Below the pieces are notes generated by a model, which searched no databases, had not been told where the DNA came from, and saw only the letters and a list, made by a program, of their open reading frames with translations. Positions 9,516 through 30,846 of a stretch of 64,000 nucleotides of DNA are shown here, piece by piece. The DNA is from Convolutriloba macropyga (Eukaryota): NCBI RefSeq assembly GCF_964194025.1, contig NC_134473.1, positions 55,304,001-55,368,000 of the forward strand. Reading direction: 5' to 3'. The position numbers and the translations under genes are program-made. Each line of letters begins with the position of its first letter. The stretch's first letter is position 1.

Positions 9516-10625
9516 ATGGTTCTTTCCGAAATCACCAGCCATGTTGAGAACGAACCTCAAGATTCAGTAGATAGTGAAAATATTAAGAAAAGTGAGCTTC
9601 ACCCTGAGTCGACCATTAAAAGTAAATCGAAAAGTGAGAACGAAGATGAACCACTTCTTCATGAGAATCCTCAGAAATACGTGATGTTTCCAATTGAGTA
9701 CCCGGATATCTGGAGTATGTATAAAAAGGCAGTGGCCAGTTTTTGGACCGTTGAAGAGGTCGACCTTTCCAAGGACATGGACGATTGGGAAAAATTGAAG
9801 GCTGATGAGCAGCACTTCATCAAACATGTCTTGGCGTTCTTCGCCGCTAGTGACGGAATTGTAAATGAAAATTTGGTTGAGCGATTTGGCCAGGAGGTTC
9901 AAATTCCTGAAGCCAGGAGCTTCTACGGTTTTCAAATTGCTATTGAAAATATTCATTCTGAAATGTACTCACTATTAATAGATACATATATTCGGGATCC
10001 TACAGAGCGAGACTATTTATTCAATGCTCTTGAGAATATGCCAGCTGTTCGGAAGAAGGCGGATTGGGCTTTGAACTGGATTACCAGTGATAACGCAACC
10101 TATGGAGAACGGATAATTGCGTTTGCTTCAGTTGAAGGAATATTCTTCTCAGGATCATTTGCAGCTATCTTCTGGTTGAAGAAACGGGGAGTGATGCCTG
10201 GGTTGACCTTTTCAAATGAGCTCATTAGTCGTGACGAAGGCCTGCACACTGACTTTGCTTGTCTCATGTTTAAGCATCTGGTCAACAAACCTGCTGAAGA
10301 ACGCATTAAGCAGATAGTGACTGATGCTGTAAAAATAGAGCAAGAGTTTCTAACCGACGCCTTGCCTGTCGATTTGATCGGAATGAATAGCCGTCTGATG
10401 CGCGAGTATATTGAATTCGTTGCTGACCGTCTTCTCGTAGAGCTTGGCTGTGAAAAAATCTGGAATCGTGACAATCCATTTCCTTTTATGGACATGATTA
10501 ACATGGAAGGAAAGACAAATTTTTTTGAGAAAAGAGTAGGAGAGTACCAGAAAGCAGGTGTGATGAACTCGGTCGGCCAGTCGGCTAAGAAGCAATTTGT
10601 TTTCAGTGTCGATGAAGAGTTTTAA
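9516..10625 (+). CDS. RRM2: Ribonucleoside-diphosphate reductase small subunit (class Ia R2), intronless
   Basis: Motifs [30 protein letters not shown] (radical Tyr), [32 protein letters not shown]-terminal FSVDEEF; AATAAA at ~10710. Confidence 0.97.
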
Positions 10626-12500: not shown

Positions 12501-13764
12501 AGAATCGAATGCCTGCAATTGCAATGTGACAGCAGAAACAACTGGGTGACGTTATAATTGACTGCAAGGGAAATCCCCCCAGCATATTGCTGTGAATTCC
12601 CATCTACAACATCCACATTACGGTCGAATTGTTTCATTGTTGGTTGGCAACGAGCTTTACAAGGGGAGTTCCCATGAACTCTGGTTCGCCATAAAGTATC
12701 AAGTTTAAAGCTTTTGTTCCACTTGCCACCAAGACGGTATGCGTAGTGGGAATACCAAAATGACGTGCAAAGAAAAACGCACCAGCACTACTAACGAGCA
12801 CATCCAACAAAATGCTGTGAAATCAAACTGGTAATACAGAGGTATAGGCCGCAAAATCTAAAACTGGAACAAACAAGCTCGAGATCAACGCTCGGCCTGG
12901 CAAGTTAGCACCCAGTGATTTTGGCTCATTCCGCAATTTTAAAATACTAATTTCCGTAACCCACTATGTGCTGCTGCTGCTTCTATCCATAATTGTAGAT
13001 CTCAAGGTAAAACGTTGTTCTTGCTTCGTTTTGTCAGTGGTGGCAGCCTTTTTTCGCAGACATTTTCTGCTCGTTTTCATACTTTTTTCTAGCTGTTTGT
13101 TAGATTTTTACTAGCTATCAAATTTTTACTAGCTATCAGACGGAGCCAGCATTTGTTCCACAGGCAACCCATAATCCCCGTTCTCCAAACTCTAAGCTTC
13201 ATACGCTCAATCTACTTCTGAGTAATCACCGAAAAACCGTAACAAAGAATTGTTAACCCCAAAAAGTCCACCTGAGATACACAATGCTGATTTTCCTTTA
13301 ATGAACAAGTAAATACGTGTTTCTTTTGTAATTAAGTTATGTACTTAACTCTACAATGCACCTATAAAATTTTTGAGTTCGATATAATTGATGTTGAGGT
13401 CCTTAATCAAACTAGACAAAGATCTGCTGCACGTCTGCAATAAATATACGAACAAAGAATACTCAGATAAATATACGGACAAAGTGATTAGCTAAACGAT
13501 AACAAAGAGCAAATGGAAAATATCACTGACAGCATCCAAAGTTGATCTTAACGAGCTGAAGAATTCAAAACTTTTGCCCAGTCCATGGGAATTGTAGAGA
13601 AGACAACGAGTAAAACTTGGTCTCAAAACACTAGAGCACGTGATGGTCTCGGCACAGTGCTTTCCTCATAATTTGAGGACTTGCGTGTGCTTGTAAAGAT
13701 GGCAGTTATGGAAGTATTAATTTTGCTGAAATGTATATACAAAAAGCAAAACAAATTCACCGTA

Positions 13765-14940
13765 AGTAGTATAACGTGAGCAAAGCTGGGGGGGGGGGGG
13801 GGGGGTAAAAAGACGTACCTATGTATAAAGATTACGTATAGTCCATATTCCCTCAAATCCCAAAGACGTACCTCACAGCATGATACCCAAGCTGTTCACA
13901 CGAGGGGATTAGCAAGATAATCCCTTGATATTAAATTAGTAAGGTCATTTACCCTTTCCCATTTTACACTTTAATAATGTAAATTTCCAAAAGTGTACCT
14001 CACAGCATGACACCCAAGCTGTTCACACGAGGGGATTAGCAAGATAATCCCTTGATATTAAATTAGTAAGGTCATTTACCCCCTACCATTTTACACTTTA
14101 ATAATGTAAATTTCCAAAAGTGTACCTCACAGCATGACACCCAAGCTGTTCACACGAGGGGATTAGCAAGATAATCCCTTGATATTAAATTAGTAAGGTC
14201 ATTTACCCTTTCCCATATTACACTTTAATAATGTAAATTTCCAAAAGTGTACCTCACAGCATGACACCCAAGCTGCTCACACGAGGGGATTAGCAAGATA
14301 ATCCCTTAATATTAAATTAGGTCATTTACCCTTTCCCATATTACACTTTAAAAATGTAAATTTCCAAAAGTGTACCTCACAGCATGACACCCAAGGTGTT
14401 CACACGAGGGGGATTAGCAAGATAATGCCTTAACAACAAATCAGTCAAGTCATTGACCCCTACCATATTACACTTTACTAATGTCAATTTCCAAAGACGT
14501 ACCTCACAGCTTGAGACCCAAGCTGTTCACACGAAAGGGATTAGCAGGATAATGTTTTAATATTAAATTAGGAAGGATGACTCATTTACAGTTACGTACG
14601 TTAGACGTGATTTTCAAAAATGAATCTCACAGCATGATACCCAAGCTGTTCACACGAAGGGGATTAGCAAGATAATCCTTCAATAATAATTTAGGATGAC
14701 TCATTTACAGTTACGTACGACTTTTCAAAAATGTACCTCACAGCATGACACCCAAGCTGTTCACACAAAGGGGATTAGCAAGATAATCCTTCAATAATAA
14801 TTTAGGATGACTCATTTAAAGTTACGTACGACTTTTCAAAAATGTACCTCACAGTATGATACCCAAGCTGTTCACACTAACGGGGTTAGCAAGATAGTGT
14901 CTTAACAACAAACTAATAAGGACATTTACCCACCCATTCC
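13765..14940 (+). repeat. Left terminal inverted repeat: terminus, G-run and 9 tandem ~110-127 bp units
   Basis: Units start at ~13868, 13995, 14122, 14249, 14372, 14499, 14622, 14733 and 14844, each with core GTACCTCACAGCATGAYACCCAAGCTGTTCACACGAGGGGATTAGCAAGATAAT. Confidence 0.93.
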
Positions 14941-15155
14941 CATATTAACAAAAAAGTACAATTTTTTATTTTTGGTTTTTACAGATTTTTTTTACAATTT
15001 TAATCAATTTTTTGTTTAAAATAGTGTTTCACTGTGTCGTTTTAAACTGAAAATCCAATTTTCCGATTTCAGAAAAAGTTGTATTATTGTTTTGAAAATG
15101 TCTATTTCTCATTTTTTTTTAACCAATCACATAATCTGTCAGATCTGATTTTGGA

Positions 15156-15803
15156 ATGTTGATGCTGAAAAACATTTACGATTCATTTTGTCTTTTTTCT
15201 TGGTTGAACATAAGTAGCCTAAAAAAAATGCAAAATACTCCAATTCTTCCTTTACTTCCTTCAACATCTTTTCTTTCTACTTTTCATTCAGATTTAGATT
15301 ACGCTCCTATCACGGAAGCATCAATATTTAAAACGGTAGTAACCGATAACAATTTGGAATTATCTTTTGAGGTGGATTGCACTAGAGTAACAATTAAAAC
15401 TCAGACAACTAGCTTGACACTTCCGAAGGATTTGTGGAGAACTTTAGGGGCAGCTAGACATCATAACCTCCACCTAGCCGAAGAAAAAGTCAACAATTCA
15501 TTGCTTTCTCTCCAAACTTATTTTCAAACCATTGAAAGAATTCGAAAAGAACAAGGGTTTCACCCGTTGAAAGACAGCAAAGGAATTATGTTCCCGTACT
15601 CTCGTGACATAAATCACTACGGTGTTTGGTGGGTAGAAGACATGTTCTCCAAGCATGCTGACTCATTTTCTAAAAACCAGAAGCCTTCAATCTGCCCGAT
15701 TTCAAAGACCTTATTCTTCCTCCGATCCAGGAAACTGACAATGAAGAGACTCAATCATCTCATCAAAATATTCCTTTCTCGAACTATAAGTGTTCTCCAA
15801 TAG
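15156..15803 (+). CDS. Polinton accessory protein, unknown function (start may be at 15228, MQNT...)
   Basis: 215-aa ORF inside the element, co-oriented with the gene block; no recognisable motif. Confidence 0.5.
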   Translation: MLMLKNIYDSFCLFSWLNISSLKKMQNTPILPLLPSTSFLSTFHSDLDYAPITEASIFKTVVTDNNLELSFEVDCTRVTIKTQTTSLTLPKDLWRTLGAARHHNLHLAEEKVNNSLLSLQTYFQTIERIRKEQGFHPLKDSKGIMFPYSRDINHYGVWWVEDMFSKHADSFSKNQKPSICPISKTLFFLRSRKLTMKRLNHLIKIFLSRTISVLQ

Positions 15804-15839
15804 AATAGTGAGATAACTCGCTTTTGTTCGATGCTAAAT

Positions 15840-16035
15840 TCACCCTCACGTGACTAAATATAGAAAACTCATCTTTGGCATCACGTGATGTTACTAAAAA
15901 TAGAAGTGACATAACTATTACGTCATGATGCACGCTCTATTTTCATTGGTTACGAATTATTTTATAACATCTCATTGGATACGAAGTTTATTTTTCGCTA
16001 CTGTTCTCGTTCTTACTTAAATTTCATTGGTTCAA
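15840..16035 (+). promoter_or_regulatory. Putative Pol II promoter of the Polinton + strand gene block
   Basis: Intergenic cluster of two TCACGTGA E-boxes, TTACGTCA (CRE-like) and three reverse CCAAT boxes (CATTGG at ~15945, 15973, 16025); a pyrimidine tract and TTTCACAG sit directly before the ATG at 16163. Confidence 0.45.
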
Positions 16036-16162
16036 GATATCAACCCCTTTCTTGAAGACAATTTATTCATTTGTTTCTTTGCGGTTTCAATATTCAGTTA
16101 CCCTTGTAGACCCAAATTTTCTGCTTTAAAAACTTTACATACTTCACATTCTCATTTCACAG

Positions 16163-16873
16163 ATGGATCAAAGCTCTGTCTCTCCTAACTCCAAAAAACC
16201 ATTCTCCTTTCCCCTCCGTAAACGAGATTACAAAGGAAAACCAGTTGTTCCCTCATCACAATTGGAATACCACAATGAGAGCATGTTTTCTCTATTTAAA
16301 GACAACAACGATAAAAAAGACAACACCGACTCAAAACCAAATGAGGAGCACGATGGAAGAAACAACTGTTGGTCCTTTCAAGAATACGGGAACCGGAAGT
16401 TTCAAATCAGCATCCCAGAGGAAACCGTCAACTCAAACTCTAACTGGACTCACTTGAAAGTATTTTGCGAAAATGTGGAAAGTGAATATGTTCTGCATCA
16501 ATTTCTGATGCTATCGGCCAGAGAATTGAAGCTTGTTATTGAAAAGATACCTGAGATGATAAAAGAAGCACTACTGTTCGAACCTACTGTAGGTACTGCG
16601 AAGCTGGTGATTGACGAAACTGTGTTCCAACCAACTGATGTTGAGGAAAAAGCAAAATTTGATGTGTTCTGGGAGGTGAGTGAGACTGCTCGACGGAAGG
16701 TGTGTGTAACTAGAATATTTTTCCAAGATGACCCGAATCGATGTTACTTCACAATCAAGCTGTTCACACGAGGGAGTGAAAAGGACATTTTCAGAAGGAA
16801 ATGCTTTCTTTCGGTCAGAATTGGTGAGATGGAGAAACTACACAGAATGAGTGATAAATTATTTCAGTGCTGA
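16163..16873 (+). CDS. Polinton protein with two tandem PC4-like (putative ssDNA-binding) domains
   Basis: Internal duplication W.......RK..I/V......W/Y...LK.F......Y/F......L...E...L resembles the PC4 fold; PC4-like genes are common in Polintons; assigned by eye. Confidence 0.55.
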   Translation: MDQSSVSPNSKKPFSFPLRKRDYKGKPVVPSSQLEYHNESMFSLFKDNNDKKDNTDSKPNEEHDGRNNCWSFQEYGNRKFQISIPEETVNSNSNWTHLKVFCENVESEYVLHQFLMLSARELKLVIEKIPEMIKEALLFEPTVGTAKLVIDETVFQPTDVEEKAKFDVFWEVSETARRKVCVTRIFFQDDPNRCYFTIKLFTRGSEKDIFRRKCFLSVRIGEMEKLHRMSDKLFQC

Positions 16874-16903
16874 ACAAAGTCAAAAATCAAAAAAGATCGC
16901 AAA

Positions 16904-17398
16904 GTGCATAACAGTAATTGTAAATTTTTAATATTGTATGTTGTGATGTTTGTATTTAATCACTTTTTAAAATTTAATGTTCCAGTACAGTTGCTTGATA
17001 TGAACATTGAGGAAATTGTAGCGTTAGAGAAAGAAATCAGTAAACTTTTTGTTGGAAATACAAAACGCAAAAATTATTTTTTGGCTGTCTGTCGAAGCTT
17101 GAACAAAAATGTAGATCTGGATAAAATCAACAGAGAAACTCCGTTTGGGGGACTAATAGGAGTTGGTGACTCAAAGTTAGAAAAACTTCTCAATTGGTCA
17201 AAAATTTTTCGATTACATGCTACATTTCATGATGCCGCAGGCTACCTGAAAACAAATCTAAATATTGGCCCTGGATATTGTTACGTTGTTCCATTTTTTA
17301 ATTCTATATTGAATTTTTGTTTCTTGGGACATATAACAGGTCTTGCATATTGTTGTTTTTTGAAAATGTCATCACGATTCCAATTAATCAAAGTGTGA
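16904..17398 (+). CDS. Polinton hypothetical protein (true start probably 16946 or 17000)
   Basis: ORF in the tightly packed gene block; no motif recognised. Confidence 0.5.
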   Translation: MHNSNCKFLILYVVMFVFNHFLKFNVPVQLLDMNIEEIVALEKEISKLFVGNTKRKNYFLAVCRSLNKNVDLDKINRETPFGGLIGVGDSKLEKLLNWSKIFRLHATFHDAAGYLKTNLNIGPGYCYVVPFFNSILNFCFLGHITGLAYCCFLKMSSRFQLIKV

Positions 17399-17440
17399 AT
17401 CATTATTTCCTAAAGACGAACAAAAATCAGTTGCTCTCTA

Positions 17441-17695
17441 ATGACAGATCATCTCAATCACGCATCTGACTTTATTTTTGATAATAACAATCAGGAAAGA
17501 CCTCCTTGGAAAATCTGTGGTCGCACTTGCTCTCGAACAGCTTTTTTGTCAATATTTCAGTGCTTAGTTGTATTAGTACTGCTTCTGTTTTCAATTATTA
17601 ATCTTATTTTTGCTAGAACTTGTGACGAACGAACAGTTTGGATTGCTATTCTTTCAAGTGCCGTTGGTTATATACTTCCTAATCCCCGAACATAA
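17441..17695 (+). CDS. Small two-helix membrane protein upstream of the ATPase
   Basis: WKICG...hydrophobic helix...INL...WIAILSSAVGYILPNP; two predicted TM segments; abuts the ATPase start. Confidence 0.75.
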   Translation: MTDHLNHASDFIFDNNNQERPPWKICGRTCSRTAFLSIFQCLVVLVLLLFSIINLIFARTCDERTVWIAILSSAVGYILPNPRT

Positions 17696-17696
17696 A

Positions 17697-18437
17697 ATGA
17701 ACAAAATCATTTCAACAAACGAACGAATTTTGATGTATCTTGTTGGTCCTTCCGGATCTGGAAAAACTGTTTTTATCAGTGATATGCTACGAATGAAAAC
17801 TTTTCTGCCATCATTTGATCGAATTTTATACTTTTATAAGCACTTTCAGCCAATTTACGACACAATGATGCAATCAATTGCAGACATAGAATTCATTCAG
17901 GGAGTTGACTTTGATTTAATCGATAACTTACCCGCTGACGGCACTAAATATTTACTTATATTCGATGATTCATTGGACATTCTTTCCAAGTCGGAAAAGT
18001 TCAACGGAATTGCGACAGCCGGTAGACATCGAAACCTAAATTGTGTATATATCAAGCATAATCTCTTCCACAAAAACAAAACTGGACGTGATGCCGAGCT
18101 GCAGACTACTCACATTGTTTTGTTCAAATCACCGAGAGATGTGCAGCAGATTGATATCTTGGGGAGACAGCTAGGCCTCGGAAGACAACTAAAACAGTGG
18201 TATGATGATGCAACACAAGAACCATATGGTCATCTTATGATTGATTTGAGACCATCTACACCTGATTTGTTGAGATACTGTTCAAATGTAACATCATTTC
18301 CCTCAGAATTCTTCGTACCGAACAGTCGTGCTCGTATTACTGATATTAATGATAAACGCACAGAACTATTATACTCTGAAGCTCTTTCGGAATCTCAGCA
18401 AGAATTTTCAACCAGCTTTCCTTCTAAATTGTCCTAA
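17697..18437 (+). CDS. A32/FtsK-like DNA packaging ATPase
   Basis: Walker A GPSGSGKT, Walker B LLIFDD, GRHRN motif, HIVLFKSPRD, PYGHLMIDL; ATG at 17697. Confidence 0.93.
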   Translation: MNKIISTNERILMYLVGPSGSGKTVFISDMLRMKTFLPSFDRILYFYKHFQPIYDTMMQSIADIEFIQGVDFDLIDNLPADGTKYLLIFDDSLDILSKSEKFNGIATAGRHRNLNCVYIKHNLFHKNKTGRDAELQTTHIVLFKSPRDVQQIDILGRQLGLGRQLKQWYDDATQEPYGHLMIDLRPSTPDLLRYCSNVTSFPSEFFVPNSRARITDINDKRTELLYSEALSESQQEFSTSFPSKLS

Positions 18438-18669
18438 AGAGTTCATCAGATTTCTCTGTGAGTGTATTGTAAACTTGATTGAAGGAAACCTCACAGGAGT
18501 AAGAAAAAATCAGTTTGTTCGCTTCCAAAAACAACTTAGAAAGCTCACGTCAAAATCAACAACCCTCAATTCCAGAAGACTTATATTGGGCTCGAAAGCT
18601 GGAATAACAATATTAGGTTACATATATCAACCTTGTATGAACAAATTTTCAACTTTCTTCAATGAGTGA
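18349..18669 (+). CDS. Small Polinton protein (LCECxxNxxxGN type)
   Basis: FIRFLCECIVNLIEGNL motif, which I recall from small Polinton ORFs; overlaps the ATPase 3' end. Confidence 0.7.
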   Translation: MINAQNYYTLKLFRNLSKNFQPAFLLNCPKEFIRFLCECIVNLIEGNLTGVRKNQFVRFQKQLRKLTSKSTTLNSRRLILGSKAGITILGYIYQPCMNKFSTFFNE

Positions 18670-19132
18670 GGTCAAAAAGTTTGTTCTTGTTCCAAAAGAA
18701 CTGTGGGAGTCCAGAAAAGGGAAATTACCGGAACCCTCCTGCGAGATCTATAAAAAGGAAGAAACTGTTTTTCCAGTTATCAAAAAAGCGAAAGAAGAAA
18801 TTAGTTCCGAAAAAACCGATCGTCCACCTAAAGAACTTAAGACAGATCTGGAATTTCACTATAAGAACAGTCCCGAGACATTGAAAACTTTGAAGGAAAT
18901 TTACGAAAACAAACGGTTGAAAGTTTCACTTTCCAATACAATTATTGTTGACAACGTTGACACTGGAGTTGATATAAAAACATTCCTTCATTCAATCAAA
19001 TTGAAAAACGCTCCAGTTGATCCAAACTATTTCCTAATTCTTAAAGTTCTAAATCTGAGACCATATCTGGTTAAAAACAACATTTTGAGGACACAGTATG
19101 GTTCAGACTGGTTCAATTACAGTTTCAGATAG
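18662..19132 (+). CDS. Polinton hypothetical protein preceding integrase
   Basis: 156-aa ORF overlapping both neighbours; begins with KKFVLVP. Confidence 0.7.
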   Translation: MSEVKKFVLVPKELWESRKGKLPEPSCEIYKKEETVFPVIKKAKEEISSEKTDRPPKELKTDLEFHYKNSPETLKTLKEIYENKRLKVSLSNTIIVDNVDTGVDIKTFLHSIKLKNAPVDPNYFLILKVLNLRPYLVKNNILRTQYGSDWFNYSFR

Positions 19133-20042
19133 AATCAAATTGCAGAAGTTGTATAAAGGGAAGGGACCACCAGCTTTCGGTTCTATCAACAACCTAACAA
19201 AATCAAGTGGAATAAGTCGCGAGAAAGTTACAGAATTTTTACAATCAAAAGACTCTTATACGAAGTACAAAGGGATCAGAAGAAAATTTCCCCGGCTAAA
19301 TGCGCATGCTCGCTATATTGATGAGATTTGGTGCTTGGATCTTGCACAAATGGATAAACTATCACAATGGAACCGAGGTATCAACTTTTTACTCGTTACT
19401 GTCGATGTTTTTTCTCGATTCTTGCGAGTAGAAGCATTACGAAGCAAAAGAGCAGAGGGTGTGAAAGCAGCTTTTATCAAAATGTGTTCGAAAAAGAACG
19501 AACTCAATTTCCCGAAAAAATTATGGCTAGATCAAGGAAAAGAGTTCTTTGGAGATATGGCCAATTTCTGCGAGGATGTGGGAGTCAAATATTATCACAC
19601 TTATAGTGAAACAAAAGTAGCTTTTGGCGAGAGAGCTATACGAACCCTGAAAAACTTAATTTACCGCTACCTGGAGGAAAAGGACACATTATCTTACATC
19701 AAAGACCTGCAAATGTTTGTTGACATCATCAACTCTAGAATAAATCGAAGTATTGGTTTGGCTCCCAAAAATGTAGTAAATGCTGACTTTTTGACTGTCA
19801 TGTACAAGCGGATGAAACTACGAAAAAACAAGAAGCCTAATTTTAAAGTAGGTGATAAAGTTCGGTTGGTATTAGTAGGGCACAATTTTCGAAAAGGATA
19901 TAAGCCTCACTATACACATGAAATTTTCCTAATTCGAAAAATAAACACTTTGGCTCCTTTCCTGACTTACTTTGTTGTTGATCAGAAAGGAGAAAACATT
20001 GATGGAATCTTTTACGAGCAAGAATTGTCAAAAGTTAAATAA
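19098..20042 (+). CDS. Retroviral-like (rve) Polinton integrase, no C-terminal chromodomain
   Basis: D (WCLDLAQM), D (LWLDQGKEF), E (GERAIRTLK); VDVFSRF; C-terminal FKVGDKVR...GIFYEQEL then stop. Confidence 0.95.
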   Translation: MVQTGSITVSDRIKLQKLYKGKGPPAFGSINNLTKSSGISREKVTEFLQSKDSYTKYKGIRRKFPRLNAHARYIDEIWCLDLAQMDKLSQWNRGINFLLVTVDVFSRFLRVEALRSKRAEGVKAAFIKMCSKKNELNFPKKLWLDQGKEFFGDMANFCEDVGVKYYHTYSETKVAFGERAIRTLKNLIYRYLEEKDTLSYIKDLQMFVDIINSRINRSIGLAPKNVVNADFLTVMYKRMKLRKNKKPNFKVGDKVRLVLVGHNFRKGYKPHYTHEIFLIRKINTLAPFLTYFVVDQKGENIDGIFYEQELSKVK

Positions 20043-20069
20043 TCATTTTTGAATTAGTCGCGCTAGAAA

Positions 20070-20408
20070 ATGGACGGTTACAATCTGCCTTATTTTAAAG
20101 GAGTTCCTCGTCAGAGAGGGCGTGGCTTTGGAGCCTTGGCAAGAACAGTCGCTAGAACAACTCTCCCAATTCTCAAGAAATACGTTTTACCTGCAGCAAA
20201 AAAAATTGGACGAGATGTAATCGAGTCAGCCATTCCCGAAATTGGAGGTGTTTTATCAGGACAAACTTCAATTAAAAAAGCAGTAAAGAAGACTGCGAAA
20301 TCAACAATACGAAAACAAGTTGGTGGTGGTATGAAAAAGAGGAAAAACACGAGACAAAGTATCGTTCGGCAAAAAATTCGGAAAGACTTTCTGAAGAACC
20401 TTGACTAA
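20070..20408 (+). CDS. Basic core / DNA-condensing protein (adenovirus pVII/pX-like)
   Basis: Lys/Arg-rich, with Gly motifs QRGRGFG and QVGGG resembling adenain cleavage sites; lies upstream of the capsid genes. Confidence 0.7.
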   Translation: MDGYNLPYFKGVPRQRGRGFGALARTVARTTLPILKKYVLPAAKKIGRDVIESAIPEIGGVLSGQTSIKKAVKKTAKSTIRKQVGGGMKKRKNTRQSIVRQKIRKDFLKNLD

Positions 20409-20449
20409 TCATTTTCCCAAACAAACGTCACAGAGTACAGTCAAACATC

Positions 20450-21247
20450 ATGAATTCGTTTTATCTTGAATTAGTGTCCAACGCTTCCTCTCAAGTTTAT
20501 CCTCAAAATACAATGGCTTCATTCACTAATTTTCTTCCCGACAAAATTGAACTGGATGGATCTTGGGAAGTAGCTTTAGTCGAAGTATCATATCCCGGTA
20601 TATGTTATAACGTTGAAGGAGGATTGATGACCTTTCACTATGATGAGAAATTTAAGCATGTCTTTGCCATTCCACCAGCAGTTTTTAACTCTATGGATGA
20701 ATTTGTAAAGAGTCTTACAGATATTCCCAAAAAAGCACGACATCCCAAAAACTTAGATCCTCAATTTTCCATCAACATCGACAAAAAAAGTCGAAGACTA
20801 ACTTTTTGCAATAGAGAATCTCAAAATGTATCATTCAGCAAAAGTTTGGCTGCTAACTTGGGCGTTGAAGCTGACAAACCTGTTATGCCTTATTCGAAAA
20901 GATCATACAACACCAAGTCCTGGGCAACGGCAGATCTCCCTTTTGATATTACTGGAACACATACAGTTTTACTCTACTTGGATATAGTTGAACCCAATTC
21001 AGTCGGTGATGTGAAATGTCCTCTTCTACGCTCCTTTCCATTCAAACACCGAGAGTTCCATAATGATGAGATTAAGAGATCGCAAGTTCTGAGTTATCGC
21101 AGTTTCGAACACTTGAGATTCCATAAAGTAATCAAATCGAACTTCCACAGTATCCATGTAGAATTAAGAAACGCTGCTGGACACCTTGTTCCCTTCTTCC
21201 CTATTGGTCAAGTTCAACTTACTTTATTATTCCAGAAAAAATCTTGA
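20450..21247 (+). CDS. Minor capsid protein (penton, single jelly-roll)
   Basis: N-terminal FYLELVSNAS...YPQNTMASF...L...WEVALVEVSYP and C-terminal YLDIVEP..VGD....LLR...I.VELRN..G..VPF, typical of Polinton mCP. Confidence 0.88.
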   Translation: MNSFYLELVSNASSQVYPQNTMASFTNFLPDKIELDGSWEVALVEVSYPGICYNVEGGLMTFHYDEKFKHVFAIPPAVFNSMDEFVKSLTDIPKKARHPKNLDPQFSINIDKKSRRLTFCNRESQNVSFSKSLAANLGVEADKPVMPYSKRSYNTKSWATADLPFDITGTHTVLLYLDIVEPNSVGDVKCPLLRSFPFKHREFHNDEIKRSQVLSYRSFEHLRFHKVIKSNFHSIHVELRNAAGHLVPFFPIGQVQLTLLFQKKS

Positions 21248-21287
21248 TCATTTCCTCAATTATCATTATAAAAAACGGTCGGCTAAA

Positions 21288-22526
21288 ATGAATTCCTTAT
21301 CTCACTCTATGCTCGACTTTTTTGGGAAAGTTCCAATTTTAGACCCAATTCTTTGGTCCAACGAGCAACAAATATTTCCAACAAATTCCTTAAACGAGTC
21401 AACAATCGAATTTCAATTGGAAACTGATCGTAATATTTTCACTGACTTGCGATCTACTCGATTATTCATCAGAGGAAGGGTTATTAAAGGCGATCGAACA
21501 CGTTTGGATAATGCCGAAGAAACATTATTGGTAAACAATGCTCTTCATTCACTTTTTTCTAATTGCGAAGTCTATCTAAACAATGAACAAGTTCACAGTG
21601 CCAATTCTCTTTATGCTCATCAAGCTTTTGTTTCTGCTGAGTTTTCAGGTACAAAAGGAACGAAGGAAAGCTTGTCTCAATGTCAAGGATATCGATACGA
21701 GATTGAGCCAAACGATTTTAATAAAAGACCGTTTACAGATGTTGTTTTTCAAAAAGATAAAGATGAGTTTACTTTTTACGGTCCGTTGGCAATAGGTCTA
21801 TTTGCTTGTGAAACTTTACTTCTCCCAAATGTCAACCTCAGACTGAAGTTGATCCGGTCTTCTCCAGCGTTCTATATGATCGATACTGGTGGGCTGAACT
21901 CTGAGGCCTTAATTTTGGAAGCTTGCCTTTTTACTAGACAGGTAGCAATCTCAGATAACTGGATGAGAAGTTTCAAAAGCAGACTGCTTCGAGAACCTGC
22001 CATATTTTACTATAATGAAGAACTTCCAAAGACGTTTATTATTCCCGCAGGACAGAACCAGTTTATACAAGAAAATATATTTTCAAACAAACCAATTCGA
22101 ATGATTGATATTGCTATGAATCTAAATAATGAGTTCAGTGGAACATACAACACGAATCCGTTCCATTTTCGTAAATTTGGTCTTCGGCAAGTTAAAATTG
22201 TGCGTGGGAATCAAACTATAGTCAACTTGAAAACAGAAAATCACGTGAGAGCTTATGCTGAAACAATGAAAGCACTCAAGTTTGATGATGACGGTCCTAA
22301 CATTCAATACAAGGATTTTGAAAACCATTTTCATTTATTTTTCGATCTTACTTCAACACAGGAGGCCAATGTCGAAATGCATTTTCCTGATGTAGTTGGA
22401 GCAGGAATTCGTTTAGAGCTCTACTTTGCTAACAATTTGACCAATACTGTAGAATTATTTGTTAGTGGTGAACGTATAAGTTCAATTGCAATTGATAAGG
22501 AGGGATCAGTCACCAAAAATGGATAA
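21288..22526 (+). CDS. Major capsid protein (double jelly-roll)
   Basis: LDFF..., TIEF, DL..TRL, VNNALHSLFSNCEVYLN, LLPNVNLRLKLIR, NPFHF, FFDLTS, IRLELYFA; ATG at 21288. Confidence 0.92.
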   Translation: MNSLSHSMLDFFGKVPILDPILWSNEQQIFPTNSLNESTIEFQLETDRNIFTDLRSTRLFIRGRVIKGDRTRLDNAEETLLVNNALHSLFSNCEVYLNNEQVHSANSLYAHQAFVSAEFSGTKGTKESLSQCQGYRYEIEPNDFNKRPFTDVVFQKDKDEFTFYGPLAIGLFACETLLLPNVNLRLKLIRSSPAFYMIDTGGLNSEALILEACLFTRQVAISDNWMRSFKSRLLREPAIFYYNEELPKTFIIPAGQNQFIQENIFSNKPIRMIDIAMNLNNEFSGTYNTNPFHFRKFGLRQVKIVRGNQTIVNLKTENHVRAYAETMKALKFDDDGPNIQYKDFENHFHLFFDLTSTQEANVEMHFPDVVGAGIRLELYFANNLTNTVELFVSGERISSIAIDKEGSVTKNG

Positions 22527-22914
22527 TCAACAACTCTTACATGTTGTCAACAGGTTCCCACACCTAAAGTTCAAATACCTCGGTTCCTTCCCTGCAGATC
22601 TTCGACCAAAAAATTTACCTACAAACACGTTTTGTATAATCAACATAGATCCATCTACTCAACCGGGCTCCCACTGGATTTTGCTTGCGAATAAGAACGG
22701 AAAGTTGTTCTACGGTGATTCGATGGGAGAAATGTTGCAAAATTATGGCATCAGGACAAAAGCAAACTTTGGTTCATTAGTACAGGAGAAACTCCAAGAT
22801 TCAGAATTGTGTGGTTTATATGCTATTTATTTTGCCCATGTGTTATTTTCCAAAGTCTCATCTAAATATTTAAATGATTTTCATATATTGAAGTTCTTTG
22901 CTGATGTTTTGTAA
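22519..22914 (+). CDS. Adenain/Ulp1-like cysteine maturation protease
   Basis: GSFPAD, INIDPSTQPGSHW (His), YGDSMG (Asp), LQ....CGLY (Gln/Cys); ATG at 22519 overlaps the MCP stop. Confidence 0.92.
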   Translation: MDNQQLLHVVNRFPHLKFKYLGSFPADLRPKNLPTNTFCIINIDPSTQPGSHWILLANKNGKLFYGDSMGEMLQNYGIRTKANFGSLVQEKLQDSELCGLYAIYFAHVLFSKVSSKYLNDFHILKFFADVL

Positions 22915-23140
22915 GTTTTGAAAACCAAAATCTTTAAATGTTTAAACAATAATTTGAAAAATGATGCAAATGGTTTTCAAAACTTTAAAAGTTTGTAAAG
23001 TTTGTATTTAATTGATTGTATGTGTATTTGTTTCTAATTCATTTATTTAAAAAAAACGGCTTTTGTTAAAAAGAGATATTGGTAGGTAAACTGTGAATTA
23101 AAAACAGAGGCGATATAAATATAAGACTAAAGAAAACGAG

Positions 23141-25201
23141 TTATAAATCTAAAGGAGTAGTGTGAATACCATCTTCACAGACTTTACGCTTGGGATAAAA
23201 ATATGACAGTCCCACTTTCTTTAGTTCATAGGTACAAACTTTCTTGTTGTCAACAACTCTGAAGCCACGATTTGTTGAATAAACTCGCTCCTCATCGAAC
23301 AGAACTTTTCTGTACTTGTTTAGGGGCTCCTCAATGTTTTTCTTGTTGAGTCCTTTACTTGATAGTTTAACTGTGTCTGTTTCCTCGTAACAGCAATACG
23401 TCTTTGAACACAGAGCAATCATCTCAGAGCATCTAAATTCTTCCTTAAAAAGTCCAGGAGTTCTCTTGTCAAAGGCAGCATGTTTTTTGCAACATTCTCG
23501 TGGGAAGAAATTGCTGCTGGAGTTTGCTGCAAAGTTATCATTGCAGTCGCTCTGTCTCATCCAGTACCACACTGATCGCATTTCCGGTCGAATTATTTCA
23601 TCAATTTTTTTCTCACTAAGGGCCATGTAGAGACTGTCGGTATCCATTTCAATGAGTTCGTACTTGTTCTTATCACAGAAAGGGGAGAAGAAGTTGTATT
23701 TAAGTTGTAACATGGTGAGTTTGGCGTACTGGAGGATGAAGAATCCTACAATTATTGGTTCCTTATGCTCGATGCGTGTCTTGCTCATTTCTACCTCATA
23801 TATCTGCTCTGGTAGCTCATTCATAGTCTTGAAAAATCTATTGTTAATAAATTTGTCCACCTGTGAGCCTTTCACGTACTTGGTGTTCGTATGTCGACTA
23901 CGGTCCATGATCTGATATCCATACGAACTGTTCCCAATCAGCTTCATTGTCTCCGCAACGACTGTTGACTCCTTATTCTGGTCTCCTTCGCGGCGGGCAT
24001 CGACAACATTCCGAACAAATGTCTCAAAGCAGCGCCGGGGAGTGTATTGGAGAAACCAAAAGACGTCTTTTAGGATCACACCTTTTTCTAGATAAAATAA
24101 CAAAAGTGGTGTAATAACTGGTCCTCGTTCAAGCTTGAAACTGGAAATGAGCATTTTTCTGGGTCTGGGTAGTAATTTGTTGCGTTCTGCAAACTCTTTC
24201 ATATGGTCCCCAATATCATCTCGTCCAACTTCACAATTCTTGAAAATTGGAGGAAAGTCTTCAAAGTACGGATACATTTCCTCTGGAACCTCAAGACTAC
24301 AATCGACGACACCAAACAGTTCTCCACGTTTAATTTTCTCAATGAGCGAGTTTTTGTTCATCGATGGTTGGAAGGGATAATTTGACTTGAGAAAGTCTTT
24401 AACACCTTTTGTGTTGTCTGTCCGACATTTCTTCCATTGACACTCCCAGATCTCTTCAACATTCAACCCCAATCCCTTCAGGTACTCTCTTCTATCATTG
24501 TCACGTTCTCTTCGCTTCAATCCGCTTTCTATGTCCTCGAAGAGAAGCGGTTTTTCCTCTTGACACGGACAAAAATGAAAGAAACATCCCATCGCTTCAA
24601 AAACCGTGTTGCAATGGTTACAAAACCCATCAACTAAATAAGGACCGAGCTTCTTTTGTTTCTTGTGTGTGAACTGGGTTTGTATTTTACAATTGGGGTG
24701 AACCTGTTGGAAGTAGTCCATGACCTGCTGTTCAAAGTAGCTTCTCCAGTTCCTGTTCGGATGAAATTTTTCGGTCTCTTCATTGTACTCCCACTTTGTA
24801 TAGGGTCCTGTTGGCATCTCTTTTGTCATGGAAAAAGGGTACAACTGACTGGCATCTATTCCGACGATGGACTTGCAAACGTTTTCTGACTCTCGAATTT
24901 TTGTTTCACCAACTTTTGCATACCTTGTAAAGATAATTGAGGGTCCCCCTGTTAGCCACTTTCGAATGTAATTATCATATTCTTTATCCTTCTCACAAAA
25001 CGGAAAAAAAGCTGCATCTGTTGACGAATGAAGGAACCTGTTTGCCAAGTTGGGAAGAGTGTAGCCCAACTTCAACATGTCTACTTGTCTTGAGTGGTAA
25101 AAACTGATCATTTTCTTCATAGCCTCAAGTGTAGGTTCGACATCTTTGTTATTGTACCACATGAGGAAGTCACGAAACGTCTGCATACCTTTTTTTCCCA
25201 T
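23141..25201 (-). CDS. Protein-primed DNA polymerase B, C-terminal part (ExoIII, palm/fingers/thumb, inserted VSR-like nuclease)
   Basis: YNNKDV, GGPSIIF, GIDASQLYPFSM, KLIGNSSYG, MDTDSLY, TPGLFKEE; insert YLVDGF...FEAMGCFFHFCPC...IWECQW. Continues the upstream ORF via a -1 shift at ~25190-25196. Confidence 0.95.
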   Translation of the reverse strand: MGKKGMQTFRDFLMWYNNKDVEPTLEAMKKMISFYHSRQVDMLKLGYTLPNLANRFLHSSTDAAFFPFCEKDKEYDNYIRKWLTGGPSIIFTRYAKVGETKIRESENVCKSIVGIDASQLYPFSMTKEMPTGPYTKWEYNEETEKFHPNRNWRSYFEQQVMDYFQQVHPNCKIQTQFTHKKQKKLGPYLVDGFCNHCNTVFEAMGCFFHFCPCQEEKPLLFEDIESGLKRRERDNDRREYLKGLGLNVEEIWECQWKKCRTDNTKGVKDFLKSNYPFQPSMNKNSLIEKIKRGELFGVVDCSLEVPEEMYPYFEDFPPIFKNCEVGRDDIGDHMKEFAERNKLLPRPRKMLISSFKLERGPVITPLLLFYLEKGVILKDVFWFLQYTPRRCFETFVRNVVDARREGDQNKESTVVAETMKLIGNSSYGYQIMDRSRHTNTKYVKGSQVDKFINNRFFKTMNELPEQIYEVEMSKTRIEHKEPIIVGFFILQYAKLTMLQLKYNFFSPFCDKNKYELIEMDTDSLYMALSEKKIDEIIRPEMRSVWYWMRQSDCNDNFAANSSSNFFPRECCKKHAAFDKRTPGLFKEEFRCSEMIALCSKTYCCYEETDTVKLSSKGLNKKNIEEPLNKYRKVLFDEERVYSTNRGFRVVDNKKVCTYELKKVGLSYFYPKRKVCEDGIHTTPLDL

Positions 25202-27465
25202 ATATTTTGGAGCTCCAAGTAATTTTCTTCGGCATTTTGTGGAACTTTCTTGAGTCTCAACTTCTTCAAAATTTCATCCTGCTCCATTCCACCGTTTTTC
25301 AATTCCACAAACTTATCGTAATCGACTGAAAGAACGTTGTGATTCTTCAACTTGCTCCAAAAGCTGTCAATTGGTGGCAGTAGGGATACATTCAACTTCT
25401 CAATACTGTCGAACCATTCATAGGGGAAGAAACCTTTCTCTTCACTCGCTCCATAGGCTTTTAGGAAATTATCCAAAGTTGTCGCTCCTCCCAGGAAGTT
25501 TAAAATGTCCAGAAACTGTAGACCAAGAAAATTCATGCCAATATATTTATTCCCCATTCGAATCACTTTAGGAATAACGTTTTTTTCTAATAAGAGGTGA
25601 TGCAGAAGATACTCTTTTATTAGGTTTAAATCATACCGAGAGCTGTTGAATCCGAAAACAGGTATGGTACTGTAATAATTTTCAAAATCTTGTCTCAATT
25701 TTGACATCACCCTGAGCTCGCTTCTCAGTCTCCTAATTTCAAGATCTTCGTCTTCCTCCACCTCGGGTTCAGCTTCGTTCTCAAATAAGTCTTCCGCTCC
25801 GGTGGGTACCTGCTTGTCTTTCACTGGAACCAGTTGTCGAAGAGCCCAATATTTTTCTTCCAATACCAGTACGAAATCATTGAGTTTCTCCCTCATTAGA
25901 AGCGTGCTCTTTTCCGCTATATTACTCAAGCTGGATACAAAATCACGGATTAGTTGAAGCGGATCTTCGTTGCAAATAAAAATTGGTTGGGAGAGCAGAT
26001 TCGAGGATATTGACACACTAATGGGGACATGTTTTCCAATCCATGAAGTCAAATCTGTGTTTTTGAGTGTACTGTCGGGGACTGTTATTGACTCAAAATC
26101 GAATACGATAAGATGAGAAAACAATCTCAGCTCTTGCGGAACATTAATATTTACATCTTCCAAGCGCTCGAAAATAGTTTCTGATAGCTGATAGGCACCT
26201 GAGGGATAGTGGTGTTTTGTTTTCTCTGAGCAATTCCTCATGTGGACTTCCAAATTATTTGATCTGTCGAAAAAGTGATCGCATACGTAGCACCGGAACT
26301 TTTTGAGGAATTTGTTGATGTCTGCTGTCCAACAGATATGGTTTTCATATCTCAGTAATGAAGTTGTCTTTGAACGTTTCATCGAGGAGCGACGAGTAAG
26401 TTCAGCAAACATATCCGATTGTTCGTCAAAAAATATGGAGTAAACTTGAATATTTCTGTCAACTAGAGCCTCAAGAACAGGAATATCGTCCTCATGTATT
26501 CCTGGAAAGGTTTCGCCATCTCTCCTTGTCGCTGAGAGGAATGTCTGCATTAACTCCATTGTATTTTGCTGTAGATCATTGCTGCCATGTAATTCGTAGG
26601 CCAATGCACGGAACATACACAAATTGTCTTGGTAAGGTTTGTTTTCGCAGTCAGATACAAAACATTTAACTATTGGATTCTTGACTAAGGCTGATGGAAT
26701 AGGTTGTTTAATGCATCCTAGCGGAACACCACTGAGCAGAAATACGAAGAAAGTGACATTTGTAACGCAATAAAACTTCCATTTTGTGTCTGGACGTTGA
26801 TTGATTAGATTTGGTAAAATTTCATCTTGTCTCAGCATTGATTTGATAAAATTGAGATCTGAGTCGTCAGAGAGAACCATGGGATTTAAAAATATGGGGT
26901 TGTTATCTGCTGCGTAGTAGTAACGAAACTCTTCAGGATTTTGCACACTCTGCAGCACGAATCCAAATGAAATATTGATTTTAGCTGAACTGGGTAACTC
27001 GTTGTAAACACAATCCAATTTTTCAATCAAGGTTTCATGATTGATCTCCATTATTTTGAAGTTGTGAACTTTCTTTCTGGACAATTCAAGAACCGAGTCT
27101 CGCAGAAAGTGATGAACCGTTTGAAGTTCACTATGAAGAGCGGGAGATTCTCCATAGATAGATAAGTCAACTTCATCGTAGGTGCTAGGTGTTGAACGCT
27201 GGTGACTGTTTCGTTTGTGATGTAGAATTTGATAATAAGTAGAGAAGGATAAGGGACAGCTGCTACAAGAAAATTTTTTCTTGATAATCAGAGACGGTGC
27301 ATGTACAGAAGCAATGTGTTTCTGCAATTTTGCTTCGTCCGGAAATGATTGTGAGCATTGTGAACATCTTTTTGCGTGAAGCTTCTGATGTCTGCTCATA
27401 TTGGATTTCATAATAAGCTTCTTGCAGGAAGAACACTGTTCCTTTGGGTTAGAATTTCTGGGCAT
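25117..27465 (-). CDS. Protein-primed DNA polymerase B, N-terminal part (C2H2 zinc fingers, terminal-protein region, OTU-like domain, ExoI/II)
   Basis: Likely ATG at 27465 (MPRNSNPK) after a TTTTCAG acceptor; three N-terminal C2H2 fingers; QDNLCMFRALA...ENHI; VFDFES (ExoI), FNSSRYDLNLI (ExoII), KGFFPYEW. Confidence 0.92.
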   Translation of the reverse strand: MPRNSNPKEQCSSCKKLIMKSNMSRHQKLHAKRCSQCSQSFPDEAKLQKHIASVHAPSLIIKKKFSCSSCPLSFSTYYQILHHKRNSHQRSTPSTYDEVDLSIYGESPALHSELQTVHHFLRDSVLELSRKKVHNFKIMEINHETLIEKLDCVYNELPSSAKINISFGFVLQSVQNPEEFRYYYAADNNPIFLNPMVLSDDSDLNFIKSMLRQDEILPNLINQRPDTKWKFYCVTNVTFFVFLLSGVPLGCIKQPIPSALVKNPIVKCFVSDCENKPYQDNLCMFRALAYELHGSNDLQQNTMELMQTFLSATRRDGETFPGIHEDDIPVLEALVDRNIQVYSIFFDEQSDMFAELTRRSSMKRSKTTSLLRYENHICWTADINKFLKKFRCYVCDHFFDRSNNLEVHMRNCSEKTKHHYPSGAYQLSETIFERLEDVNINVPQELRLFSHLIVFDFESITVPDSTLKNTDLTSWIGKHVPISVSISSNLLSQPIFICNEDPLQLIRDFVSSLSNIAEKSTLLMREKLNDFVLVLEEKYWALRQLVPVKDKQVPTGAEDLFENEAEPEVEEDEDLEIRRLRSELRVMSKLRQDFENYYSTIPVFGFNSSRYDLNLIKEYLLHHLLLEKNVIPKVIRMGNKYIGMNFLGLQFLDILNFLGGATTLDNFLKAYGASEEKGFFPYEWFDSIEKLNVSLLPPIDSFWSKLKNHNVLSVDYDKFVELKNGGMEQDEILKKLRLKKVPQNAEENYLELQNIWEKKVCRRFVTSSCGTITKMSNLHLRL

Positions 27466-27647
27466 TTTCGCTGAAAATAAAAAATGAAATGTTAGATTGG
27501 AAGTGAGAAAGGAGTAAAAAAAATTGTTAAAATGAAAGTTGCGGTGGAATAAAAATTTGTCAGAAGTTGGAATGATTATTGTACTCCACAGCACTCAATT
27601 CTGTAAATCAGAAAAACAAAACGGAAATGAAAAGTCCTTTATCAAAT

Positions 27648-27895
27648 ATGACGTAATTGCGACGACAAAATGACGTAACTATAACGACATAATGATGAAA
27701 TTGTGACGACGAAAGGACGTAATTATAAAGACATAAAGACGTAATTGTGACGACATAATGACGTAATTGTGACGACATAATGGCGTAATTGTGACGACAA
27801 AATGACGTAATTATGACGATAGAATTACGTAATTTTGACGACAAAATGACGTCATTTTGACGACACTATGACGTAATTGTGACGTGTTATGATGT
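27648..27895. repeat. About 11 x 22-bp tandem repeat ATGACGTAATTGTGACGACAWA (CRE/ATF-like sites) upstream of pPolB
   Basis: Directly visible periodic repeat containing TGACGT(A/C)A and TGACG half-sites. Confidence 0.9.
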
Positions 27896-28029
27896 TATTG
27901 TGATGTTATGATTAATTTTGACTATAAAATAGTGACTAATTGCCTAATCATGTGAGAATTTTATGATTTTCAATGGTTTTTTTTATTTCAATAATTGGGT
28001 ATATATTCCTTCCTCAAAAACATGTTTTA

Positions 28030-28650
28030 ATAAAAGTAAACTTACCAGTTTCTTTTTTGGATTTTAAGCTGAAGTGAAGTGTTGTATTATCTACTATAGG
28101 GGGAAGTTCTGGCTGGCTAAAATGGTCCAGTTTAATTACAGGAGCAAAGGAAAATTTCTATTAATTAAATTTATTTGCTTACCCGCTTCAACACTGCAAG
28201 TGATCAACTTGAAACTGGCAACAAGGAGAAAGAAACAAAGACTATCTGAAAAAAAAGATAAATTAAACTATAATTTTGATCAACTGATTTTTAGAAGTTG
28301 TTTGAAATAATGAATGGGAGTAGTGGCTTGGGAATAGGAGTAGTGTCCTAATAAAAGCAAACTTACCAGTTTTATTTTGGACTTGGAAGCGATGTGATGT
28401 GATGCAATATATACTATTTGGGGATATTTTGGCTGGCTAAAATGGTCCAGTTTAAATACAGGAACAAAGGAAAATTTCTATTAGTTGAAATTGTTTGCTT
28501 ACCTGCTTCAACACTGCAAGTGTTCAACTTGAAACTCTTCTTGCTGCAAGGAGAAAGAAACAAAGACTATCTGAAAAAAATGATAAATTAAACGAGAATT
28601 TTGACCAACTGATTTTTAGAAGTTGATTGAAATAATGAATAGGAGTAGAG
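28030..28650. repeat. Diverged ~320 bp direct duplication inside the Polinton, with minus-strand splice signals
   Basis: ~28030-28330 versus ~28351-28648; ACTTACC, GCTTACC, CTAAAATG and CTGAAAAAA are kept in both copies. Confidence 0.85.
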
Positions 28651-28684
28651 ACTAATATATGAGCCAGCCAATCTAATTTGTTTT

Positions 28685-29597
28685 TGAGGGATTATCTTGC
28701 TAATCCTTTTCGTGTGAACAGCTTTGGTATCATGCTGTGCGGTACATTTTTGAAAATCACGTCTAACGTACGTAACTGTAAATGAGTCATCCTACCTAAT
28801 TTAATATTAAAACATTATCCTGCTAATCCCTTTCGTGTGAACAGCTTGGGTATCAAGCTGTGAGGTACGTATTTGGAAATTGACATTAGTAAAGTGTAAT
28901 ATGGTAGGGGGTCAATGACCTGACTGATTTGCTGTTAAGTCACTATCTTGCTAATCCCCTTCGTGTGAACCGCGTGGGTATCATGCTGTGAGGTACGTTT
29001 TTGGAAATTTACATTATTAAAGTGTAAAATGGTAAGGGGTCAATGACCTTACTGATTTGTTGTTAAGACACTGTCTTGCTAATCCCTTTAGTGTGAACAG
29101 CTTGGGTGTCATGCTGTGAGGTACACTTTTGAAAATTTACATTAGTAAACTGTAATATGGTAGGGGGTCAATGTCCTGACTGATTTGCTGTTAAGGCACT
29201 ATCTTGCTAATCCCCTTCGTGTGAACAGCGTGGGTATCATGCTGTGAGGTACGTTTTTTGGAAATCTAGTAACCGTACGTAAGTGTAAATGAGTCACCCT
29301 ATCTAATTTAATATCAAAACATTACCTAACTAATCCCCTTTGAGAGAACAGCTTGGGTGTCATGCTGTGAGGTACGTCTTTGAAAATTTACATTATTAAA
29401 GTGCAATATGGGAATGAGTAAATGACCTAATTTAATATTAAGGGATTAACTTGCTAATGCCCCTCGTGTGAACAGCTTGGGTATCAAGCTGTGAGGTACT
29501 TTCTTGGAATTTGAGCGAAAATGGGCTATACCTAATCTTAATACATAGGTACTTCCTTTTACCCCCCCCCCCCCTGTCTTGCTTAACTATTACTACT
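28685..29597 (-). repeat. Right terminal inverted repeat: 7 tandem ~125 bp units, C-run and terminus
   Basis: Reverse complement of the left core (...GTGTGAACAGCTTGGGTRTCATGCTGTGAGGTAC) at ~28733, 28857, 28984, 29113, 29241, 29363 and 29488. Confidence 0.93.
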
Positions 29598-30846
29598 ACC
29601 GTATTTGAGGATATGACTACGAACGCAGCCCCACGGAGTCATAGCCACTGTGAAAACGAATGAAAAATGGGCAAACAATCTTGATGCATTTCATTTGCTT
29701 CAGCCGAATATTTGCTTTGCCTGAAGGGTAGCGAACACCAGGAGTGTTACGATTCTTCTTTTTGTAAAATTATACTGGATGGTGAGTCCCATGCTCACTA
29801 TCAAACATGGAAATGAACTTAATCAAACGCAAGGAATGCATCCAATGCTGCTACAAAACGACTGCAACAAGAAAAATCTCCACCTAAATAAAACTAACGC
29901 TCCTCTGCTGTCTTTAAGCCCACCCAGGGCTAAATTGCGTCAACGGTCACTGGAGGCGATCTCACAGACAATACGCCTAATGATTAATTTGATTTTGAAA
30001 TCACTACTGTAGAAACTATTTGAGTCAAACCTCTCGAAGTTCGTGCAAACGCAATTAGACTTAGTACGAGCAACGAGTCTGACCGAATAGTTAGCTGCGG
30101 CCTGCATTCGGCTGAAAATCCAAATTCTCACCCTATTCAAATTTGTGCAAACGTGATTTCTTTAACAAAAATATGACAAATAAGAACCTCAAATATGCCC
30201 AACATTGTAACCGGGGAAGATTTGATTGAGCAATTTGTAAAAATGTTTGACTAATGTTTTAGTGATGTGGACATTTTGGTCCCACAATAATTTTGGTAAC
30301 CTTGATTGTTGTCATCAACATTCTATTTGATTAAAAATTTCACCACCAAAGGAAGGCAATGACCCACAATGCACTTCTGGAAGCCCGCTTACTCCAAAAG
30401 CTGGAAAAACGATTTTCCAATGATTTTACGAACCAGCACTCGTTATGAGGCAATTAAAACTCTGTCAGAGAAAGGAGAAAGAGTTCATTATTATGGGTGA
30501 TCTGAAGCATAGCATATCATGGATCCGACAATATTGAAAATATAGGCTTCAAAATTTGTGTTAAGAATCTCATCAGGTCACCCCTCATTTTTCAGACAAG
30601 GATTAGTACAGCAAAATTCCCCCGAAATAGAATTTGTCAATTGAATCTCTTATTTAAACAATGATGCCAAGCGATTGTGACACGCTATGGACCTGTACGT
30701 CTTCTGTGTTGTATCTCGAAGGTTTTCGAAAAAGTGTTCGACCCACTTTATAATTATTGTCAACCCAAACTAAATAAAAATCAGTTTGGGTTAAGAAAAA
30801 GTTAATCTTTGACCACTCAGATTCTGTCATCTCTAGATTCTTTATT

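Follow-up and report, generated by a model that had tools for sequence, protein, structure and literature searches.

The element at positions 13765-29597 of the window (the whole stretch of 64,000 nucleotides that was analysed) is a young Maverick/Polinton copy whose left and right ends each match other copies of its family, and the element is therefore a recombinant. Its unlike ends are a real feature, one of about ten such cases in the genome. The copy is probably the product of recombination among family members that were replicating together, integrated with its ends still uncorrected.

The Maverick copy and its unlike ends

The Maverick spans 15,833 bp, its left tip starting at 13765 and its right tip ending at 29597. 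AGTAGT is found at both tips, giving the (AGT)2//(ACT)2 ends by which a Maverick/Polinton terminus is recognized, and the 6-bp TSD that characterizes these elements is present as ACCGTA on both flanks, a perfect duplication as the sequence-only reading had stated. The first ~60 bp of an end consist of three variable blocks, which we call M1 (bases 7-14), M2 (bases 19-23) and M3 (after the G-run). They are separated by two joints within the first ~40 bp, a conserved 4-bp spacer between M1 and M2 and the G-run between M2 and M3. The features of the copy are the following.

13759..13764 (+): left 6-bp TSD ACCGTA, identical to 29598-29603
13765..13787 (+): left tip (integrase side), with (AGT)2, M1 of type A (13771-13778), the conserved 4-bp joint and M2 of type p (13783-13787)
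13788..13805 (+): left G-run of 18 G, the joint between M2 and M3, whose length varies freely across the family
13806..13872 (+): left post-G block M3, type x
13868..14950 (+): subterminal array at the left end, made up of 9 units (111-127 bp each), of which units 1-5 match copies of the A-p-x type
14954..17450 (+): body block tracking copies C4:60534235/C1:37436979, with ORFs 15156, 16163 and 16946 of uncharacterised product
17697..18437 (+): A32-like packaging ATPase (Pfam PF04665, E 1e-8, above cut-off)
19098..20042 (+): RVE integrase (Pfam PF00665, E 6e-9, above cut-off)
21288..22526 (+): probable double-jelly-roll major capsid protein (Atlas score 0.98; PF21738 on 24-30% of cluster members)
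22519..22914 (+): probable cysteine protease, an adenain-like candidate (PF02902 at E 0.003, a weak score under the curated cut-off)
23141..27465 (-): protein-primed family B polymerase with N-terminal zinc fingers, in two ORFs (25117-27465 and 23141-25201)
24954..28644 (no strand assigned): body block nearly identical to copy C3623:57328, from which it differs by 0-5 bases in each 500 bp, where the family median is 8-64
28693..29499 (-): right subterminal array, 7 units, of which the six scored match the C3623 polymerase-side array
29495..29597 (-): right tip (polymerase side), with M1 of type B, M2 of type q, G13 and M3 of type y
29598..29603 (+): right 6-bp TSD ACCGTA, a perfect match to the left TSD

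The polymerase ORFs have an Atlas score of 0.96 to PF03175 clusters, which marks the product as a protein-primed polymerase; they gave no direct Pfam or PDB sequence match, and a PDB search with the C-terminal ORF was empty. They encode 782 and 686 aa, compared with a single ORF of 1442 aa in six other locus halves, and the split is either a lesion or an assembly error. ORF 15156 (215 aa) and ORF 16163 (236 aa) also depart from the modal lengths of the family, 193 and 249 aa, respectively. With the polymerase gene split, not all ORFs of this copy are intact, and the earlier claim of intact ORFs is an unsafe premise. The capsid candidate is without a Pfam match, and its double-jelly-roll family label should be taken as a lead. 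ORFs 20070 and 20450, for which Pfam likewise returned no match, lie at positions that fit minor capsid or PM/PW/PZ genes.

Several other features were observed in and around the element. A 22-bp tandem array rich in TGACGT, a possible promoter, lies upstream of the polymerase gene at window positions 27643-27884, and its repeats presumably represent ATF/CREB-like sites. Between the right array and the polymerase gene, at about 28050-28650, there is a direct duplication of roughly 300 bp. The tip at 13765-13872 looks like a degenerate array unit, and some arrays of the family (loci L220, L221 and L229) contain internal pseudo-tips, composed of a unit end, a G-run and a post-G block. Outside the element, 3 kb to its left, an intronless ORF for the small subunit of ribonucleotide reductase occupies 9516-10625 (+); among solved structures, its nearest is mammalian R2.

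Animal Mavericks have TIRs starting with (AGT)2 or (AG)3, a 6-bp TSD and a length of 12.7-24.6 kb, and both perfect and imperfect TIRs have been recorded for them (Barreat and Katzourakis 2021, PMC8097293). With those elements, as described in the parts of that paper used here, our copy shares the (AGT)2//(ACT)2 ends, the 6-bp TSD, the size, and the genes for pPolB, integrase, ATPase and capsid, along with a candidate for the protease. Mismatched ends as recombinants, the reassortment of tip blocks and an inward gradient of identity fall outside the analysis presented in those parts.

The two tips differ by 8 mismatches in the first 23 bp and by 11 in the next 67 bp (19/90, 79% identity), with G-runs of 18 on the left and 13 on the right and arrays of 9 and 7 units. 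Direct comparison of the tips thus reproduced all the counts given by the sequence-only reading (8 of 23, G18 versus G13, about 11 of 67, 9 versus 7 units, and approximately 80% identity). The first difference is at base 8, which leaves an outer homology of just 7 bp. Only part of this asymmetry is exceptional: the left-right distance of 19 is the largest of the 77 family copies that we scored (gapped comparison), but the other two differences are ordinary, since G-run length differs between left and right in 71/77 copies (by 5 or more in 23) and the number of array units in 64/77.

Decay after insertion was rejected as the source of the tip mismatches. The copy carries 22 private substitutions in 13,686 positions (0.16%), the second lowest value of 42 near-full rows, so the 21% divergence of the tips is not decay, and the differing bases are haplotypes shared with other copies. 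The earlier view that the element is young and has not decayed since insertion is therefore borne out through its private changes, but not through the argument from intact ORFs.

We also considered whether an assembly chimera or a haplotype switch joined ends from different molecules. The left junction is found in run-derived contigs (13578-13790/2) of runs X2, X3 and X4, and the right junction in a contig (29572-29721) with 0 differences of runs X3, X4 and X5. No contig in four runs, with all 7 loose ends examined, joined the right flank to a left-type tip, and no empty-site allele was seen among the joints listed for the left-junction runs. Run X2 has the left junction and no cover at 29602-29769; its missing right flank was not counted as evidence. 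The runs come from one study (three samples), and one of them may be the source of the assembly. An artefact would be in keeping with a multi-copy family, with junction contigs at about half depth in X3/X4 and with the lack of a long read or contig across the element, so that the two ends are phased by the assembly, the TSD and the junction contigs. Against it, the same TSD stands on both flanks, run-derived contigs connect each tip to its own flank without differences, the right flank has no alternative tip, and mixed ends also occur at nine other loci. We regard an artefact as very improbable.

Matched and mixed ends across the family

A terminus search by exact patterns and BLAST returned 281 positions, consisting of 72 simple pairs, 14 complex clusters and 87 singles. 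Sequence was retrieved for 81 pairs besides the 13765-29597 copy and for 23 unpaired ends, 22 drawn from the 87 singles and one belonging to a cluster; when the latter were followed for 20 kb, a partner appeared in 5/23 and none in 18. The TSD was perfect in 69/87 end pairs and within one mismatch in 80/87. After seven pairs with at least two TSD mismatches and three lacking the post-G block were dropped, 77 copies were scored over 90 bp. The census is partial, covering exact patterns only and 22/87 of the unpaired ends.

The median left-right distance within a copy is 2, versus 15 between ends of different copies (90 bp, ungapped, n=77). Ends within one copy are thus far more alike than ends of different copies, as would be expected of a panhandle-corrected linear genome of the adenovirus/PRD1 type. 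All three blocks are matched in 61/77 copies (~80%), where ~4% would be expected for two random ends, and 10/77 (~13%, about one in eight) have ends mixed by swaps of multi-base blocks; six further discordant copies, with single-base or untyped differences, were set aside. The ten mixed copies represent ten different end pairs, with no pair repeated in the partial census, and none has therefore been seen to multiply as such. One of them, C6:52930070, has a low-complexity G6 TSD, and another, C2:27001876, a TSD with one mismatch. In a post hoc comparison (7 vs 34, Mann-Whitney p 0.014), the mixed copies proved younger than the matched ones rather than older.

The search also revealed loci of unusual structure. 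An 820-bp mini-copy (L181, G000:C15:39762965-39763784) has both termini, a perfect TSD and mixed ends. At L212/L213 (G000:C10:28902933-28919800), six right-hand termini are arranged in tandem, about 1.5-1.6 kb apart. At L210/L211 (G000:C10:11377277-11393119), two other termini, with their ends facing outward, enclose an inserted copy whose flanks consist of terminus and array fragments. A near-perfect palindrome of ~430 bp (94-98% self-complementary), located between two outward-facing terminus motifs, is nested in three copies (L197 92-518, L204/L205 and L254/L255); its M2 type is also present at one end of two mixed copies.

The sequence-only reading had offered functionally distinct left and right ends, replicated without panhandle correction, as one explanation for the asymmetry, together with a check, namely whether collected termini form separate left and right clades. 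We ran this check on 104 ends of 52 oriented copies. In their tree, 46 changes are required for the side label and 35 for shuffles, and the integrase-side ends are rejected as one clade (p-AU 3e-88). The types of M1, M2 and M3 are as frequent at the integrase side as at the polymerase side. Left and right end classes were consequently discarded, as 61/77 matched copies also oppose them. Beyond the observation in a single copy, nothing favours distinct ends or, as a related possibility, end decay after insertion, which would have to reconcile 0.16% private change with 21% at the tips and with differing bases that are shared haplotypes; we find this pair of explanations scarcely credible.

Tip blocks and the mosaic make-up of the copy

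At least 31 block combinations occur among the 61 matched copies. M2-M3 and M1-M3 are unassociated (permutation p 0.27 and 0.57), and M1-M2 retains some association. The fraction of four-gamete failures, a measure that is inflated by multi-allelic, possibly old blocks and whose site pairs are non-independent, is 0.00-0.11 inside the blocks and rises to 0.66 at the M1|M2 joint and to 0.84 at the G-run. For comparison, 297 internal boundaries have a mean of 0.13, with 4 reaching 0.66 and 1 reaching 0.84, and neighbouring parts deeper in the repeat give 0.01-0.2. Reassortment at the two joints thus far exceeds that at internal sites. Recombination extends to the family as a whole, four-gamete failures being 0.09 for sites 1-10 bp apart and increasing to 0.67 for those more than 5 kb apart.

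In matched copies, an array unit has a near-identical counterpart at the opposite end in 40/52, 34/49, 31/48, 26/46, 19/43 and 12/37 cases for units 1 to 6, respectively, and comparisons between copies give 0-3 per set. Left-right identity therefore fades inward, a pattern that the gain and loss of units could also produce. In mixed copies, M1 is matched in 5/10, compared with about 2.3-2.6 expected (p 0.06-0.09), and one of the copies, C13:6952632, shows the reverse of the outer-matched, inner-mixed pattern. Such a polarity starting at the tip is weak, no more than suggestive, and it is predicted by host gene conversion as well. A megablast measure of the length of the homogenised tract from the tip was not used, because variable G-runs break the alignment (38/61 zeros).

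The left 90-bp core of our copy differs by 1-3 bases from the ends of C6:28775008 and C8:37197871, which carry the left type at both ends; its left units 1-5 also match such copies, and the tree places the left end with the two ends of C6:28775008 (99/89). The right tip is one base from the tips of C3623:57328 and C10:9439405 and groups with the ends of these copies (87/90, not starred). Both ends of C3623:57328 are of the right-tip type, and the six scored right units match its polymerase-side array in order, with 0-2 differences each. At 14954-16953, informative sites favour C4:60534235/C1:37436979 against C3623 by 34:1. A model with a single crossover and two parents was rejected, as the informative sites require at least three sources. 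The suggestion of the sequence-only reading that the element is a recombinant of two subfamilies formed before integration is thus supported with regard to its recombinant nature and timing, but two subfamilies are too simple a description because of the at least 31 tip combinations in the 61 matched copies and the multi-block mosaic of the body.

Origin of the mixed ends and comparison with known systems

The following course of events would produce the observed copies. Family members would recombine off the chromosome during replication. In protein-primed replication, one end would normally be copied onto the other from the tip inward, by a panhandle-type repair, and correction tracts that stopped at the short conserved joints would generate new tip combinations. 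If the integrase requires only the invariant outer bases, mixed ends would be accepted, and integration would freeze molecules at any stage of correction; the 13765-29597 copy would be one left uncorrected at all three blocks. Formation before insertion is supported by the outer homology, since only 7 bp are available to a host conversion tract, and by the youth of the mixed copies.

A more specific version of this origin deserves tentative consideration, although we would not yet wager on it. The replication origin of the Maverick may act as a shuffler of three cassettes, in which end-correction begun at the tip, or template switching of the short start product of protein priming, stops preferentially at the 4-bp spacer or the G-run and so deals old cassette alleles into dozens of origin combinations, with the integrase freezing uncorrected and half-corrected molecules.

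Host ectopic gene conversion after insertion could instead have overwritten an end of the element, the left tip with units 1-5 being the likeliest tract. The left-type segment is indeed short (the tip and about five units) and adjoins a body that tracks other copies, M1 stays matched in 5/10 mixed copies as conversion would have it, and the family is mosaic at a fine scale. Nevertheless, such a tract would have needed to end no more than 7 bp from the edge of the element. The copy also ranks with the youngest, and old copies show no excess of mixed ends; we judge host conversion to be quite unlikely.

Maize Mu offers a precedent for mixed ends that cycle with matched ones. Mu heteromorphs have TIRs from different clades and intact TSDs, and the age of an element cannot be read from the similarity of its TIRs (Hunter et al. 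2023, PMC10401008). According to the portions of that study consulted, Mu moves by cut-and-paste, its heteromorphs multiply as such, and symmetry is regained only occasionally, whereas in our family each mixed pair is unique, 61/77 copies are matched and a protein-primed polymerase is encoded. The same portions set out a mechanism for a chromosomal formation of heteromorphs. Applied to our copy, it would mean that a crossover or joint excision of nested or neighbouring copies formed a mixed element, which then moved with its ends unchanged. The complex clusters do contain nested and extra termini, and a perfect TSD would be expected in this case too. However, the partial census gave no second copy with the same end pair, no internal terminus was found within the element, 10/10 mixed pairs are unique, whereas Mu heteromorphs are described there as typically multi-copy, and the majority of matched copies would be left unexplained. 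We therefore hold a chromosomal origin to be unlikely and prefer recombination during replication, before integration.

Our literature search, which covered little subscription or older virology and no supplements, found no paper on mixed-end Mavericks or on a block-wise shuffling of their tips. To our knowledge, the replication of Mavericks has never been watched directly. Adenoviruses with non-identical termini, reportedly studied by Lippe and Graham in 1989, are said to be viable and quickly converted. For adenovirus and PRD1, the panhandle model is invoked to explain how the homology of the inverted terminal repeats is restored, and direct evidence for panhandles is described as still lacking (PMC11886824). 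The likeness to our family lies in linear protein-primed genomes whose ends are kept identical. The difference is that those are lytic viruses studied through engineered hybrids, whereas a Maverick, known here from integrated copies, would preserve natural intermediates by integration.

These results indicate that the ~80% of matched copies, the ~13% of mixed ones and the free reassortment of tips constitute population-level evidence for an active homogenisation of ends and for frequent recombination. In practice, Maverick insertions cannot be dated by TIR divergence, and young copies escape strict TIR filters; past the outer 7 bp, unlike sequence is evidently acceptable to the integrase. The repair model becomes testable by counts of polarity and of tract ends and, if the Maverick origin is indeed a three-cassette shuffler, this genome would preserve, in countable form, the fossil traces of panhandle-type repair in a Maverick.
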